Origin: a virus
Direction: 5' to 3' (one strand)
DNA: 24,006 bases
UHGV virus genome: UHGV-1462358
The notes under the pieces were generated by a model. It was not told the DNA's origin and did no database searches. It saw only the letters and a list, made by a program, of their open reading frames with translations. Both the position numbers and the translations under genes were made by a program. Shown piece after piece: positions 2,802 through 24,006 of the stretch. Within the stretch, counting starts at the first letter, position 1, and each line of letters starts with the position of its first letter.

Positions 2802-4390
2802 AAATACCATCTTTAGTGGGACCTGACGGGAAAACATCCCTTCGGGAATACGCGGGATATCATGGTGGTGGTGGCGGGTTTGGTGGGCAGCTGCGGGGCT
2901 GGAATCCGCCGAGTGAAAGTGCAGATGCCGCACTCCTTCCCAACTATTCTCGTGGAAATGCCCGCGCTGACGATCTGGTGCGAAATAATGGCTATGCAGC
3001 AAACGCCGTGCAGCTCCACCAGGACCACATCGTCGGGTCATTTTTCAGACTCAGTTATCGACCGAGCTGGCGCTATCTTGGCATCAATGAGGAGGATTCA
3101 CGCGCATTTTCTCGGGATGTGGAAGCCGCCTGGAATGAGTATGCCGAAGATGACTTCTGCGGGATTGATGCCGAACGCAAGCGAACGTTTACGATGATGA
3201 TTCGTGAAGGTGTAGCAATGCATGCGTTTAACGGTGAATTATGCATGCAGGCGACATGGGACAGCGATTCAACGCGTCTTTTCCGTACTCAGTTCAAAAT
3301 GGTTAGTCCGAAGCGCGTCAGTAATCCAAGCAACATCGGTGATACCCGGAACTGTCGCGCCGGGGTAAAAATCAATAATAGTGGTGCTGCGCTGGGATAT
3401 TACGTCAGCGATGACGGTTATCCTGGTTGGATGGCGCAGAACTGGACCTACATACCTCGCGAGCTCCCCGGAGGGCGCCCCTCTTTTATCCATGTCTTCG
3501 AACCGATAGAGGACGGACAGACCCGAGGAGCCAATGCGTTTTACAGCGTTATGGAGCAGATGAAAATGCTCGATACCCTGCAAAACACTCAGCTCCAGAG
3601 TGCGATAGTGAAGGCCATGTATGCTGCCACCATCGAGAGTGAGCTGGATACGCAGACGGCGATGGATTTCATTCTCGGCGCGGATAATAAAGAGCAGCAG
3701 AGCAAACTGACGGGCTGGCTCGGTGAAATGGCGTCCTATTACTCAGCTGCGCCGGTTCGCCTGGGTGGGGCAAGGGTTCCACACCTGTTGCCGGGTGATT
3801 CTCTCAACCTTCAGTCGGCGCAGGATACCGATAACGGCTACTCGACTTTTGAACAGTCACTGCTGCGCTATATTGCCGCTGGGCTGGGTGTATCGTATGA
3901 GCAGCTTTCGCGAAATTATTCTCAGATGAGTTACTCGACTGCGCGCGCAAGCGCTAACGAGTCATGGGCGTACTTCATGGGCCGTCGCAAGTTTGTGGCA
4001 TCCCGACAGGCCTGTCAGATGTTTCTTTGCTGGCTGGAAGAGGCAATTGTCCGCCGCGTGGTCACACTTCCTTCAAAAGCCAGATTCAGCTTTCAGGAAG
4101 CGAGAACAGCCTGGGGAAATGCCAACTGGATCGGCTCAGGCCGCATGGCTATTGACGGGCTGAAAGAGGTACAGGAAGCCGTCATGCTCATCGAGGCTGG
4201 TCTCAGTACGTATGAGAAAGAATGCGCCAAACGCGGTGATGATTATCAGGAGATTTTTGCCCAGCAGGTCCGGGAAACAATGGAGCGTCGTGCTGCGGGT
4301 CTGAAACCACCGGCATGGGCCGCTGCCGCTTTTGAGGCTGGACTGAAAAAATCAAACGAGGAGGAGCAAGATGGCGCACGAGCTGCGTAA
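2798..4390 (+). CDS. B: Portal protein (lambda gpB homolog)
   Basis: 530 aa. [28 protein letters not shown] and the C-terminal [42 protein letters not shown] match lambda gpB as recalled. Position after W is syntenic. Confidence 0.95.
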
Positions 4391-20305: not shown

Positions 20306-20325
20306 CTCATGACTTTCAATGCAAA

Positions 20326-20347
20326 CCTCGCCTCGGCGGGGTTTTTT
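20326..20347 (+). terminator. Intrinsic terminator after the lipoprotein gene
   Basis: GC-rich hairpin (CCTCGCC/GGCGGGG arms) followed by TTTTTT at 20342-20347, 21 nt after the stop at 20305. Confidence 0.6.
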
Positions 20348-20363
20348 ATTGCCTGGAGAAAAT

Positions 20364-21473
20364 ATGCTTTATAACACAGGAACTATCTCTATTAACGGAA
20401 ATACCGCAACCGGATCCGGTACAAACTGGACTGCACCGGCCAGCCAGGTTCGCGCTGGCCAGACGATTATTGTCATGTCTAACCCGGTTCAGATGTTCCA
20501 GATTTCATCCGTGAATAGCGCCACGTCAATGACGGTAACGCCTGCTGCATCACCGGCGCTGAGCGGCCAGAAGTACGGCATTCTGGTATCAGACAATATC
20601 TCGGTTGATGGGCTGGCGCTGGCCATGTCGCAGCTTATCAAGGAGTATGACGAGAATATTGGTGCGTGGGAGACGTTCGCCACAACCTCAGCCAACCAGA
20701 ACATTACCGTTACGATCAATGGCACCAGTTTATCAATCCCGGCTCTTGGGAAATTACTGCAGAAGGGGAGCAACGGAGCTTTGCCGGTTAATCAAGGTGG
20801 TACCGGCGCAACGAATGCCGCAGACGCTCGCACAAACCTTGGTTTAGGAAGTAGTGCGACAAAGGATGTCGGAACTGCGGCAGGGAATGTTATGCAGGTG
20901 GGAGCTTTTGGGGTTGGTGCTGCTCTCCAAAATAAGCCCACAGATGCCAGTTCATCCTTCATCAGTGATGCTGCTGGCAATACTCTGTGGGCTCCTGCGA
21001 ATGGCTGTGGGTTTCAGAGTTCCTACACCGAGCAGCGAATTGCGCAGCTGTGGATTACTTACGGTGGTGCGATATTCAGCCGTTTTCTAACAACCACTGA
21101 TGACCCTCAAACACCAAAATCATCAGTGCCGTGGGCGCAGCTGCAGTCTGCAGGTACATCGGACATAAATTTCAAGAAGGTTACTGGAGAACTTAATTTA
21201 GAAGTGTCTCTGGCCAACATCGTGGCAATGGATTTTAAGACCTTCTACTACCTTGCTGATGAAGAGAAAACGATACGCCGAGGTGTTGTTGCTCAGGAAC
21301 TGGAAAAGATAGATCCGCAATATGTTCACTCGGCTGAGGAGTCGGGGAAAATGACCCTAGACCTCAATCCTCTGGTGCTCGATGCGCTGGCGGCAATCAA
21401 AGAGCTGGCAATCCGCGTCAGCGCATTAGAGGGCGACGCTAAATCTCCGGCTTCTGGCTCATCCGCTGGTTAA
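20364..21473 (+). CDS. Side tail fibre protein: constant N-terminal part (to ~20840) fused to the variable part currently in the expressed orientation; C-terminal intramolecular chaperone-like (peptidase S74-type) domain
   Basis: ATG at 20364 with GGAGA RBS; the track's 20319 start runs through the terminator hairpin. GGTGATNAADARTNLGLGSSAT hinge motif is typical of phage tail fibres. C-terminal ...FKTFYYLADEE..GVVAQELEKIDPQYV...LVLDALAAIKELAIRVSALE fits the self-cleaving chaperone domain pattern. Confidence 0.75.
   Translation: MLYNTGTISINGNTATGSGTNWTAPASQVRAGQTIIVMSNPVQMFQISSVNSATSMTVTPAASPALSGQKYGILVSDNISVDGLALAMSQLIKEYDENIGAWETFATTSANQNITVTINGTSLSIPALGKLLQKGSNGALPVNQGGTGATNAADARTNLGLGSSATKDVGTAAGNVMQVGAFGVGAALQNKPTDASSSFISDAAGNTLWAPANGCGFQSSYTEQRIAQLWITYGGAIFSRFLTTTDDPQTPKSSVPWAQLQSAGTSDINFKKVTGELNLEVSLANIVAMDFKTFYYLADEEKTIRRGVVAQELEKIDPQYVHSAEESGKMTLDLNPLVLDALAAIKELAIRVSALEGDAKSPASGSSAG
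20827..20852. repeat. Left recombination site (gix/hix-like 26-bp site) of the invertible segment
   Basis: CTCGCACAAACC-TT-GGTTTAGGAAGT: dyad-symmetric AAACC-NN-GGTTT centre, as in hix/gix sites as recalled. Inner half matches the inner half of the right site at 10 of 12 positions. Confidence 0.6.
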
Positions 21474-22228
21474 ACAGTGAATCTGCGGGCATATCCAAGC
21501 GAACATCGATCCAGCTGTTCGCCGGTACGTCCATCGGTTCACCTTTGGTTTTGATGATTTCACCTTCATCGCTCAGGATGTATTTGCGTTTATACAGACG
21601 GATAGTCAGCCCACCGCTATCGGTTTGCTCTGCCTCAACTACACCCAGTTCCCCCATGCCGCCAGGGTCCATTGGGGGAAGTAACTGCCATCCCTCAGAC
21701 GCCAGGCCTGCCGAACCTGTGAGAACATAAACGCCGACATCAAGCCGTGAAATAGTAATGCCCTCAGCCTCGGCATTCGCCGCACCGCAGCCGCACCAGG
21801 TAAAACCATCCTCCGCTATATCAGCACGCTGGCACTCATCCTTGCTCGTTACAATTCGTGCCACGGGGGAGGCAGCTTTGATAGTGCCGTCACTGGCTTT
21901 TGTCGTATTAGCTGTATGGTAAAATTCATACCATTTACCTGCTGTTCCGCCTATAACCTGGCTAAACATTTTTCTCCCGACAGGCCCACTTAGCCAGCAC
22001 TCAAAGGTGCCGTAATTTGGGCTTCGGTTCATCCAGACACCGTAGCCCGCATCATTAGTTGGCAGGCCGTTGCCGGAACCAGAGGCAATGTTATAAAAGC
22101 CATTTAATCTCGCGTTTTCGTAACGGTTTTGTTCGGCAGGGGCAACAACACCCAAGCCCAAATCCCCTACAGAAAGTATATCGCCAGATGAGCTGTACGC
22201 GTTCCTTGTAGCGCTGCTTCCCAAACCA
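20840..22228. mobile_element. About 1.4 kb invertible DNA segment (Mu G / P1 C / e14 P-type) carrying two convergent alternative tail-fibre C-terminal coding regions
   Basis: Bounded by inverted gix-like sites with identical TT core dinucleotides in inverted orientation. Both cores fall at codon positions 2-3 in the respective reading frames. A Gin/Pin-family invertase gene lies immediately adjacent. Confidence 0.6.
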
Positions 22229-22229
22229 A
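21439..22229 (-). CDS. Alternative tail-fibre C-terminal segment (currently in non-expressed orientation; no start codon of its own within the segment)
   Basis: Minus-strand ORF encoding ...NVGLGSSATRNAYSS..., sharing the (N)xGLGSSAT junction motif with the + strand fibre. It overlaps the + fibre 3' end convergently by 35 bp. The track's GTG start at 22272 lies outside the segment and is probably fortuitous. Confidence 0.6.
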
Positions 22230-22241
22230 CGTTTAATAGAT
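22216..22241. repeat. Right recombination site (gix/hix-like) of the invertible segment
   Basis: GCTTCCCAAACC-AA-CGTTTAATAGAT on the + strand. Its reverse complement ATCTATTAAACG-TT-GGTTTGGGAAGC aligns with the left site. Confidence 0.55.
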
Positions 22242-22305
22242 TGCCACGGGCCGGCCTGGCCGATAACTTCACCTGATTTTTTTGCAGAATTTATTGGGTG
22301 AAAAA

Positions 22306-22861
22306 TATGCAAATTGGCTATGTCAGAGTGTCAACAAATGACCAAAATACAGATCTCCAGCGCCAATCTCTCGAACGCGCAGGATGTGAACAGGTTTTTG
22401 AAGAAAAAATGAGCGGGACGGTAGCGAACCGGCCAGCGCTCAAAAAGCTTCTGCGGACTCTGAATGCGGGCGATACACTGGTGGTGTGGAAACTAGATCG
22501 CCTCGGGCGAAGCATGCGAAATTTAGTGCTGCTGGTGGACGAACTCCGACAGCGGGGCATTCACTTTAAGAGCCTCACGGACAGCATTGATACATCAAGT
22601 CCAATGGGGCGTTTTATATTTCACATCATGTCAGCGCTGGCGGAAATGGAAAGAGAGTTAATCGTCGAACGCACCCGGGCTGGATTAGCGGCGGCGCGGG
22701 AAAAAGGGCGAATAGGTGGCAGACGTCCAAAATTAACTCCCGAGCAATGGGCACAGGCTGGGAGATTAATATTAAACGGCGTGGATAGAAAACAAGTGGC
22801 AATAATTTATGATGTCGCTGTATGCACGCTTTATAAAAAATTTCCGGTGGGACAGGCTTAA
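22306..22861 (+). CDS. Serine recombinase, DNA invertase (Gin/Hin/Pin/Cin family)
   Basis: MQIGYVRVSTNDQNTDLQR... with catalytic Ser in the VRVSTNDQ motif. TLVVWKLDRLGRS, SLTDSIDTSSPMGRF and the C-terminal HTH (KQVAIIYDVAVCTLYKKFP) are near-identical to Gin/Hin as recalled. ATG at 22306 preferred over the track's GTG at 22298. Confidence 0.9.
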
Positions 22862-22903
22862 ATGATTGAAGGGCAGCTGCTAGATGGGCTGCCCGTCAAA
22901 GTA

Positions 22904-23167
22904 TTATCCATTCTGCCGTACAGTTGGAAATTCAGACGTCAGCCACATGTCAGATTCATCAAACATTTCCTCCAGCATACGGTTCAGCTTTTCCCGATCA
23001 CTTTTGCTGGCATCACTATTTAAGCCGTTCGCCTGCATCGGCTTTACCTTCACTTCGGCATCAGGAAAAATCTGGTGCACCCGCTTCGTTAGTTCAGCCA
23101 GGATGATCTCTCTGGCCCCTTGGAGCCCCTCAACATTTCGCTTGTCATAAACCAGTTCAACAAACAT
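22904..23167 (-). CDS. DinI-family protein (SOS-inducible, RecA-modulating)
   Basis: Internal ATG at 23167 with GAGAGGA RBS gives an 88-aa product. The C-terminal LEEMFDESDMWL resembles the DinI C-terminus (...WESADDWF). A LexA box lies 57 nt upstream. The track's 160-aa version starts beyond the promoter and is rejected. Confidence 0.7.
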   Translation of the reverse strand: MFVELVYDKRNVEGLQGAREIILAELTKRVHQIFPDAEVKVKPMQANGLNSDASKSDREKLNRMLEEMFDESDMWLTSEFPTVRQNG

Positions 23168-23223
23168 ACGGATCCTCTCATAAGTGAAAATTGCCTGTGC
23201 TTGATCTGTTTTCATAAAAATAC

Positions 23224-23243
23224 TACTGTATATACATACAGTC
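23224..23243. promoter_or_regulatory. LexA operator (SOS box) in the divergent promoter region
   Basis: TACTGTATATACATACAGTC matches the CTGT-N8-ACAG consensus (TACTGTATATATATACAGTA) at 18 of 20 positions. A candidate -35 TTGACT overlaps it on the minus strand. Confidence 0.8.
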
Positions 23244-23266
23244 AATAAGCAAGTGAGGGTGCGTTC

Positions 23267-23506
23267 ATGCCTCGTCAACCGGATATTCGTGCTGCTTTTA
23301 TTGCGGCCATACAGCAAAACCCGAAGGGCTATCTCTGCCTGCATACAGACAGATTCATCGCTGAACTGCAGGAGAGGCACTGGCATTTCAGCCAGGCAGA
23401 TGCAAATTCATGGATCGAACGATACCAGCCAGACTTCGCCGATAAGACGACAAACGGAAGTGAGAACCGATACTGGATCCTGCGTAACATGGGGAGGGTT
23501 TTCTAA
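23267..23506 (+). CDS. Hypothetical protein (79 aa), first gene of LexA-box-proximal operon
   Basis: ATG at 23267 with GAGGG 7 nt upstream. Stop overlaps the next start (TAATG). No family recognised. Confidence 0.5.
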   Translation: MPRQPDIRAAFIAAIQQNPKGYLCLHTDRFIAELQERHWHFSQADANSWIERYQPDFADKTTNGSENRYWILRNMGRVF

Positions 23507-23826
23507 TGGGGTTTCCATCGCCAGCCATGGATTACCAGGAGCAGCGCATGACAATAGATGTTATCTGCGGTGTAGATAACAACTGCCGGGTTATTGAAAC
23601 TTCATGCGGCTGGGCCGTTATAAACGTCAGTCTTAAGCCAGAAGGAGGGGATACGTTGCTGGTTAGCATGGACGGGAGAAACCAGTTCGTGAAGCTAATG
23701 GGCCACGCGCTGATCACTCAAGATGGTGAAGCGATAGAAGGGGAAGCTTTGAATGACGTAACGGTACACGGCGTTCTTACACATACACTTAACCAAGTTA
23801 AAGACGATAAATCGCCTGTAATGTAG
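23506..23826 (+). CDS. Hypothetical protein (106 aa), second gene of the operon
   Basis: Translationally coupled to the upstream ORF. Followed by a terminator at 23892-23920. No family recognised; alternative internal starts are possible. Confidence 0.45.
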   Translation: MGFPSPAMDYQEQRMTIDVICGVDNNCRVIETSCGWAVINVSLKPEGGDTLLVSMDGRNQFVKLMGHALITQDGEAIEGEALNDVTVHGVLTHTLNQVKDDKSPVM

Positions 23827-23891
23827 CGTGTAAATGTCGGGAGTTATTCCCCCATTTTTCCCCAATGATTCCCCGTACAAATTTCAAACAT

Positions 23892-23920
23892 AAAAAAACC
23901 AGCCGTAAGAGGCTGGTTTT
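23892..23920. terminator. Bidirectional intrinsic terminator between the two-gene operon and the tRNA
   Basis: CCAGCC-GTAAGA-GGCTGG hairpin (23899-23916) flanked by A7 on the 5' side and T4 on the 3' side. It reads as a terminator on both strands. Confidence 0.7.
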
Positions 23921-23931
23921 CAATGTGTTTT

Positions 23932-24006
23932 TGGTCGGCACGAGAGGATTTGAACCTCCGACCCCCGACACCCCATGACGGTGCGCTACCAGGCTGCGCT
24001 ACGTGC
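23932..24006 (-). tRNA. tRNA-Pro (anticodon GGG), 5'-truncated by the window edge
   Basis: Reverse complement reads GCACGTAGCGCAGCCTGGTAGCGCACCGTCATGGGGTGTCGGGGGTCGGAGGTTCAAATCCTCTCGTGCCGACCA. It has D-arm, anticodon loop AUGGGGU (GGG), T-arm GGTTCAAATCC and 3' CCA, and matches E. coli proL as recalled apart from 2 missing 5' nt. Confidence 0.85.

Follow-up and report, generated by a model that had tools for sequence, protein, structure and literature searches.

LexA-controlled genes for HumD and DinI proteins are already known from phages and plasmids. The record of bacteriophage P1 places a LexA site 'in the regulatory region of lxr and humD' and states that HumD 'functionally complements E. 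coli UmuD′'. The impCAB operon of IncI-type plasmids codes for the DinI-like ImpC, the UmuD-like ImpA and the UmuC-like ImpB; its LexA box TACTGTATATACATACAGCA has a heterology index of 1.60, and in an SOS-constitutive strain ImpA is up 9-fold and ImpC 21-fold (PMC12211044). In the Gifsy prophages, dinI, antirepressor and irsA genes form LexA-controlled operons (PMC3121763), and small proteins binding to members of the S24 family have been described in Acinetobacter (DdrR with UmuDAb) and in phage GIL01 (gp7 with LexA) (PMC11332147). Here we compare with these systems a locus at the end of the virus genome UHGV-1462358, a DNA of 24,006 nucleotides which we call the window. At this locus a dinI-like gene and a pair of overlapping small open reading frames (ORFs), ORF1 of 79 and ORF2 of 106 amino acids, diverge from one LexA (SOS) box.

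The best explanation of the locus is in our opinion, with a probability of roughly 0.62, an SOS accessory cassette (a 'moron') which lies at the attachment end of an HK97-like lambdoid prophage and is repressed by LexA in both directions, and whose UmuD′-like protein would act together with host UmuC and/or RecA* and whose ORF1 would be an accessory. Only ORF1 is truly uncharacterised; otherwise the cassette is of the known SOS/translesion accessory kind, and the family of ORF2 is already labelled 'UmuD-like' in the PHROGs. Neither the compact architecture of ORF2 nor the coupling of the ORF1 family to orphan UmuD′ genes is described in the literature and the libraries which we searched.

The LexA box agrees with the LexA consensus TACTG(TA)5CAGTA in 18 of 20 positions. 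The motif CTGT-N8-ACAG is found at a single site in the window (0.31 sites are expected by chance), and none of 100 shuffled sequences contained the 20-mer of the box when up to three mismatches were allowed. Of 80 viral loci, approximately 70 have the box at a distance of 41 nucleotides 5′ of the ORF1 start; among these 80 the arms CTGT and ACAG are constant, in contrast to the central spacer, and both the position and the arms of the box are conserved over ∼110 related loci. The box is also present in most loci of a species-level sample, which comprises 32 loci with one genome per species and which is biased toward closer relatives due to a narrower alignment. In addition, the 16-bp core of the window box, CTGTATATACATACAG, is identical to the core of the impCAB box (PMC12211044). 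A preliminary description of this DNA had postulated a near-consensus SOS box which is shared by a dinI-like gene and an operon of two translationally coupled genes in divergent orientation. Both claims are borne out, the former by the consensus match, the uniqueness in the window, the shuffled controls and the conservation, and the latter by promoters on both strands and by the TAATG overlap of the ORF1 stop codon and the ORF2 start codon. We regard it as strongly supported that this predicted LexA site is functional by comparative criteria and that it would be the single site for both divergent promoters.

The arrangement of the two promoters relative to the box is tight. The box fills the –35 hexamer and the spacer of the leftward promoter, and with its left arm it supplies the –10 hexamer of the rightward promoter, TACTGT, which keeps A2 and T6 of the –10 hexamer. 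As the rightward promoter is below the threshold of the generic promoter scan, it was deduced from conservation: 32 of the 36 distinct loci have a TTGATC/TTGACN hexamer 17–18 nucleotides 5′ of the box, with a score of at least 4 of 6 versus a background mean of 1.2, the sequence of the spacer being variable. In the loci with dinI the box ends with CAGTC followed by AA, which reads TTGACTG on the opposite strand and thereby contains the –35 hexamer of dinI; in the loci without dinI the box ends with CAGTA or CAGTT. Thus, the non-consensus C at position 20 of the box is explained, because these nucleotides double as the dinI –35 hexamer on the other strand. A single LexA dimer at this site would cover the –35 hexamer and spacer of the leftward promoter as well as the –10 hexamer of the rightward promoter. 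Since the box overlaps both promoters, both should be silent in the lysogen and should be co-induced when RecA* drives the cleavage of LexA. DNA damage would then co-induce the DinI protein on the one side and the pair of ORF1 and the UmuD′-like protein on the other side. A different arrangement is seen in four IMG/VR loci (L007, L047, L061 and L068), where an insert of ∼1.3 kb separates dinI from ORF1 and ORF1 has no LexA box within 200 nucleotides; this insert may be an insertion sequence (IS) uncoupling ORF1 and ORF2 from LexA control.

According to the preliminary description neither of the two small proteins belonged to a recognised family. This statement stands for ORF1 and falls for ORF2, which matches PHROG 3469 'UmuD-like protein' over 106 of 106 positions (E 1e-47). 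The profile of the ORF2 family (37 members) matches UmuD and UmuD′ of the PDB (8gmt, 1umu) with an E value of 2e-6, aligning residues 2–98 with residues 25–138, and in the alignment to UmuD′ the GDSM loop with Ser60 is deleted. The column equivalent to Lys97 contains K, R or I within the ORF2 family, and because of this variability ORF2 is not considered a peptidase. The Ser60/Lys97 dyad is dispensable for the function of UmuD′ once it has been cleaved. The N-terminus of ORF2, MGFPSPAMDYQEQR, contains the arm GFPSPAxDY and starts at the equivalent of Gly25 of UmuD; the residues G2–A7, D9 and Y10 are invariant over UmuD, HumD and ORF2. At the C-terminus a tail DDxPV[MIL] is found in ORF2, in mEp390 gp26 and in the proteins of HK140, P1, N15 and HK639, but not in E. 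coli UmuD, and ORF2 has the tail in the HumD-specific form DDxPVM. As the MGFPSPAxDY arm and the DDxPV[MIL] tail are common to the HumD proteins, we place ORF2 in the phage HumD lineage, of which it is a form shortened by ∼23 residues.

Remote homology searches and structure prediction, which the preliminary description had proposed, point to the UmuD′/LexA S24 fold for ORF2 and to a winged helix for ORF1. The AlphaFold2 model of ORF2 keeps the seven β-strands, and its top Foldseek matches are the C-terminal domain of LexA and UmuD′ (template modelling scores 0.58–0.64, probability 1.00); we are moderately confident in the predicted S24 (LexA C-terminal domain/UmuD′) β-barrel fold. The proteins of this family are acidic with a median isoelectric point (pI) of 4.3. 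With a validated probe no UmuC-like gene was found within 2.5–3 kb in any of 128 loci. Therefore the orphan UmuD′ genes have to act via host factors, if they act on DNA polymerase V (Pol V) at all. It is strongly supported that ORF2 is a catalytically dead and pre-truncated UmuD′ homologue; like P1 HumD, it would not need a RecA-mediated cleavage. Most likely it would dimerise and work through host UmuC and/or RecA*, so that the induced phage or host might immediately obtain translesion synthesis or damage tolerance under the control of the element, or a tuning thereof. DinI would modulate the same axis. Genes of the ORF2 type are also found alone beside the small terminase gene in P22-like phages, where they have their own LexA box 38–40 nucleotides upstream. 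A 93 amino acid protein of the ORF2 type encoded 3′ of ORF1 in Phytobacter ursingii (L122) is without the GFPSPA arm (it starts with MQTLDSICG) and keeps the core motif ITEDGEAIEGEAL.

ORF1 does not belong to a Pfam or NCBIfam family, and its PHROG, number 3893, is without an assigned function. An exhaustive search in 1.84 billion representatives yielded only 88 clusters of ORF1, mostly of ∼79 amino acids. Judged by its substitution pattern, ORF1 is a real coding gene: among 59 distinct alleles, substitutions at the codon positions 1, 2 and 3 number 228, 156 and 865, there are 736 synonymous versus 336 nonsynonymous codon changes, and in shifted controls the bias of the codon positions shifts along with the frame. 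The predicted topology α1-β1-α2-α3-β2-β3 as well as the structural similarity to winged-helix proteins allow a confident prediction of a winged-helix fold. Averaged over this family, helix 3 has a net charge of –0.36 and the wing one of –1.5; thus, the basic recognition helix or wing expected for DNA binding is missing. The whole proteins are mildly basic (median pI 8.8). Because a basic recognition helix or wing is missing and because ORF1 is nearly always coupled to a gene of the UmuD′ type, ORF1 would most likely assist the UmuD′-like protein in its pathway by binding to proteins, by analogy to the pairs DdrR–UmuDAb and GIL01 gp7–LexA.

Other roles of ORF1 were considered and dismissed. Recombination directionality factors are small winged-helix proteins close to attP. 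We set aside such a role, or that of an excisionase, as the phages carrying ORF1 have an excisionase or AlpA beside int, as the helix and wing are not basic and as ORF1 also occurs on plasmids. ORF1 does not match DinI in a Pfam search, and a leader of the ImpC type was rejected since ImpC is DinI-like (PMC12211044). Natural fusions of ORF1 and UmuD′ (P0134, P0157 and P0132) look like frameshifted gene calls in draft assemblies and were not used as Rosetta-stone evidence. The gene is not annotated in several records: the RefSeq record of mEp390 (L090, 20749–20985) has a 42 amino acid ORF on the opposite strand instead, and in phage Eeyore (L001, 2811–3293) dinI is called as a 160 amino acid ORF spanning the LexA box and ORF1.

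The linkage of ORF1 to genes of the UmuD′ type, which we regard as the strongest line of evidence on this protein, extends over phages and plasmids. Within the 32 species-level loci each intact ORF1 of 79 amino acids is followed by a gene of the UmuD′ type, with TGATG, TAATG or TAGTG as the overlap of stop and start codon. These partners are mostly compact, a few are of the HumD type (129 or 123 amino acids) and some are remnants. A distant relative of ORF1 (31% identical, hhalign probability 99.8%) is encoded by the Cronobacter phage phiES15 together with a partner of the ORF2 type and without dinI; here a LexA box with perfect arms lies 40 nucleotides 5′ of ORF1. Homologues with ∼38% identity are found in 1,041 plasmid records, of which 947 are conjugative, including IncX3. 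In one IncX3 and one IncFIB conjugative plasmid (pHNAH507-1, L094, and pSa44-CIP, L095) a 79 amino acid gene is followed after 2–3 nucleotides by a 'umuD' of the HumD type. Both plasmids have an identical inserted end, …GGGAAGACC, in place of the left arm of the LexA box, of which …ATACAG is left. The insertion site is ∼30–45 nucleotides 5′ of the ORF1 homologue (locus position 3001), and the neighbouring element of the IncX3 plasmid is annotated as ISKox3. This insertion may make the plasmid-borne pair of ORF1 and umuD independent of LexA. In papers on IncX3 plasmids this umuD is only a map landmark next to ISKox3 and IS26.

In six loci (L014, L020, L041, L051, L054 and L067) ORF2 is a remnant of ∼19 codons (MGLVSPTTDYVEHRI… up to the stop codon, locus positions ∼3240–3300), and ∼260 nucleotides beyond the remnant a flagellin gene follows (locus position 3503 onward). 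These loci resemble prophage ends that have decayed next to a flagellin gene. Two contigs from metagenome-assembled genomes assigned to 'Geobacteraceae' (L097) and 'Bacillota' (L119) have ORF1 genes 97% and 68% identical, respectively, and share the box and the partner gene with the window; probably these contigs are mis-binned enterobacterial prophage.

On the other side of the box, the protein of the leftward gene matches Pfam DinI (PF06183) with residues 16–76 of 87 (E 4e-22, 78.6 bits at a cut-off of 24.2) and PHROG 189 'RecA filament binding protein DinI', and the 87 amino acid form in E. coli ABWA45 is named 'DinI family protein' in RefSeq. The naming of this gene as dinI-like in the preliminary description is therefore correct, and it is strongly supported that its product is a DinI-family protein, that is a predicted modulator of the RecA filament. 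The gene ends 42 nucleotides from the invertase gene, and nothing follows it in the cassette. The coordinates of all features are compiled in Table 1.

Table 1. Features of the SOS locus and of the adjacent prophage end (coordinates of the window)
Feature	Position	Strand	Basis and details
dinI-like gene, 87 amino acids	22904-23167	minus	Pfam and PHROG match; start at 23167; Shine-Dalgarno sequence GAGAGGA 5′ of the start
Rightward promoter	23201-23229	plus	–35 TTGATC 23201-23206, 17-nucleotide spacer, –10 TACTGT 23224-23229; inferred via conservation
Leftward (dinI) sigma-70 promoter	23217-23245	minus	–35 TTGACT 23245-23240, 17-nucleotide spacer, –10 TATTTT 23222-23217; promoter scan, 9/12 matches
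LexA (SOS) box TACTGTATATACATACAGTC	23224-23243		Consensus match and conservation
ORF1, 79 amino acids, predicted winged-helix protein	23267-23506	plus	PHROG 3893; Shine-Dalgarno sequence GAGGG 23255-23259
ORF2, 106 amino acids, compact UmuD′/HumD-like protein	23506-23826	plus	PHROG 3469; Shine-Dalgarno sequence GGGGAGGG 23491-23498
Hairpin terminator, bidirectional, between ORF2 and tRNA	23895-23920	both	Terminator scan
tRNA-Pro(GGG)	23932-24008	minus	ARAGORN; the window ends inside the gene at 24006

The position of the cassette at a prophage edge, as had been proposed, can be confirmed. The matches of the phage genomes Phi06_2987, Eeyore and Flotzy to the window stop at position 23977 within the 3′ part of tRNA-Pro, the 3′ part of this gene (to ∼23977) is duplicated in the phage attP, and in phage Eeyore the integrase gene is next after the matched end. 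As the phage matches end inside the tRNA gene and the Eeyore integrase follows, we conclude that this is the attachment-site end of an HK97-like/lambdoid prophage. The hairpin lies on the phage side of the attachment site. The preliminary description had regarded it as the terminator of the two-gene operon just before the tRNA; such a hairpin is present, but the longer T-run (a tail of seven T) belongs to the minus-strand version, and therefore the hairpin is a terminator for the tRNA no less than for the operon. At least 80% of the 1.2-kb end (22800–24006) is carried by 14 of 5,426 complete E. coli genomes, the tRNA part being matched in 5,426 of 5,426, and the named homologues of ORF1 and ORF2 in protein searches are mostly from Enterobacter. 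Thus, it appears that the cassette is more common in Enterobacter than in E. coli.

The remainder of the 24-kb window comprises terminase-to-tail genes and a tail-fibre invertase. Two opposed C-terminal tail-fibre ORFs (20319–21473, plus strand, and 21439–22272, minus strand) are flanked by an inverted repeat of 17 nucleotides (88% complementary, 20699–20715 and 22118–22134), and an invertase of the Hin/Gin type (22298–22861; Pfam Resolvase and HTH_7) adjoins this segment. The tail-fibre segment between the repeats is probably an invertible host-range segment.

Several findings weigh against a LexA-controlled cassette in which ORF2 serves as a UmuD′ and ORF1 as its accessory. In Pfam, ORF2 gives no Peptidase_S24 match, whereas HK140 gp28 and P1 HumD are both above the threshold; with NCBIfam HumD it reaches 33.6 bits at a cut-off of 120, and this over residues 1–22 only, so that the curated threshold is failed, and the model of ORF2 has a predicted local distance difference test (pLDDT) value of 75. 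Only a minority of the species-level loci have dinI on the divergent side; the gene is therefore rather a neighbour or add-on in this lineage, the core consisting of the box, ORF1 and the UmuD′-like gene. ORF1 alleles which are 94–97% identical to that of the window pair with either UmuD′ type, the two types being mutually 27–30% identical, and ORF1 persists with a remnant or replacement of ORF2 in HK225 and in the loci with the flagellin gene downstream. Since nearly identical ORF1 proteins pair with divergent UmuD′ cores and ORF1 outlives ORF2, a specific complex of both proteins is not required by the data. Moreover, having lost the Ser60 loop and further residues of the core (∼20 in total), ORF2 may no longer bind UmuC and could be a decoy or inhibitor. 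In that case the compact UmuD′-like protein, possibly together with ORF1, would occupy RecA* or form dead-end complexes with host UmuD, UmuD′ or UmuC and thereby damp mutagenesis or the RecA* coprotease alongside DinI. We take this explanation seriously although we hold it to be rather unlikely. Besides the shortened core and the failed S24 and HumD thresholds, it would fit to the neighbouring DinI with its annotation as RecA filament binding protein, to the structure of the UmuD–RecA filament complex (8gmt) among the fold matches of ORF2 and to the missing cognate polymerase gene; yet P1 HumD, the nearest relative that has been characterised, complements UmuD′ according to its annotation, and ORF2 has kept the N-terminal arm and all seven β-strands.

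Two further explanations assign the leading role to ORF1 or to the pair as such. ORF1 could be an SOS-induced antirepressor or regulator which triggers prophage induction, like Tum of phage 186, GfoA/GftA of Gifsy and AntC of N15, with ORF2 as a passenger. ORF1 indeed shares the context of the Gifsy antirepressors (PMC3121763), being small, under LexA control, located away from the immunity region and next to a dinI homologue, and the winged-helix fold as well as the persistence of ORF1 after the loss of ORF2 would agree with such a role. However, comparison of the ORF1 profile with the Gifsy-1 GfoA candidate (the ORF between dinI and the irsA homologue) gave an hhalign probability of 0.1%, helix 3 and the wing of ORF1 are net negative, and nothing follows downstream of dinI in the window. 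In addition, the repressor gp37 of mEp390 consists of HTH_3 and Peptidase_S24 and HK140 gp49 is annotated as HK620-cI-like (the repressor of the window prophage itself lies outside the window); since these repressors are of the cleavable type, no antirepressor is needed in mEp390 and HK140. Also, in the 947 conjugative plasmid records the ORF1 homologues are always found with a gene of the UmuD′ type and without a phage repressor. We therefore judge an antirepressor to be improbable. As a side observation, the dinI homologue is truncated in Gifsy-2 of strain LT2. The preliminary description had proposed a toxin–antitoxin, abortive-infection or lysogenic-conversion module. Some type I and II toxin–antitoxin loci are LexA-regulated, and two coupled small ORFs at a prophage end and on plasmids could suggest a defence module switched by DNA damage. 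But the best PADLOC match (E 0.027, 11 bits) is not credible, Pfam toxin or antitoxin domains are absent, and ORF2 appears to be a UmuD′-fold protein without catalytic residues. Furthermore, states with a single gene exist, namely solitary ORF2-type genes in P22-like phages and solitary ORF1 genes in HK225 as well as in prophage remnants; because each gene occurs without the other, an obligate toxin–antidote pair is unlikely. The whole pattern is that of the known P1 lxr-humD and impCAB (PMC12211044) cassettes, and we consider a toxin–antitoxin, abortive-infection or other defence module very improbable.

Thus, we prefer the LexA-repressed SOS accessory cassette with a UmuD′-like effector. Cassettes of this kind, with UmuD′ and DinI genes under LexA control on mobile elements, influence tolerance and mutation under DNA damage, including that by quinolone antibiotics. 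A widespread, minimised UmuD′ which has kept the arm and dropped the catalytic loop may indicate which parts of UmuD′ stay under selection without self-cleavage. Going further, and quite tentatively, ORF1 could represent a new family of small winged-helix proteins which are dedicated partners of orphan pre-truncated UmuD′ proteins on HK97-like, lambdoid and other temperate phages and on IncX3 and IncF plasmids; both proteins would then form a two-component SOS effector reprogramming host Pol V (UmuC), RecA* or the cleavage of LexA-family proteins. We see this as possible, though on balance doubtful. A modulation of Pol V or RecA* by ORF1 would add a new factor to stress-induced mutagenesis on elements of clinical importance; without such an activity the locus would simply be one more ordinary cassette of SOS accessory genes. 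ORF1 is found on the IncX3 backbone that spreads blaNDM, and should the two-component effector prove true, an accessory factor of SOS mutagenesis would be present on major carbapenemase plasmids.

When comparing the locus with the described systems, the likeness to the Gifsy prophages concerns the position: in both cases the stretch from the tail-fibre genes to the prophage end contains a dinI homologue preceded by a LexA box (PMC3121763). The Gifsy antirepressor, however, is encoded 3′ of dinI, whereas dinI of the window has no such gene and ORF1 is not related to the GfoA candidate. DdrR and GIL01 gp7 resemble ORF1 as small, lineage-restricted proteins of the DNA damage response which are encoded near or act on a protein with the LexA/UmuD fold, which may be seen as a functional analogy only. 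In contrast to ORF1, DdrR is encoded divergently from umuDAb and is a corepressor on DNA; ORF1 would be co-transcribed with its partner, and this partner is without a DNA-binding domain. The impCAB operon shares with the window the combination of DinI-family and UmuD-family genes on a mobile element, the use of one LexA box and the 16-bp core of this box. It differs as a single co-directional operon with a full-length ImpA that needs cleavage and with the polymerase subunit ImpB, while the window has a divergent dinI, a compact and pre-truncated UmuD homologue, no polymerase gene and an ORF1 which is not DinI-like. P1 differs from the window in that its divergent gene is lxr instead of dinI and in that no gene for a 79 amino acid winged-helix protein is placed between the box and the UmuD′-like gene. 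Further, ORF2 has 106 amino acids compared to the 129 of P1 HumD, to which it is ∼30% identical, and has neither the linker behind the arm nor the loop with Ser60. Nevertheless, P1 has, like the window, a single LexA box for two divergent genes. P1 humD, N15 gp26 and HK639 UmuD, all with a LexA box 26–37 nucleotides 5′ of the gene, are like ORF2 pre-truncated UmuD′ forms on mobile elements which start with MGFPSPAxDY at the equivalent of Gly25, end with a DDCPV[ILM] tail and have no umuC partner.

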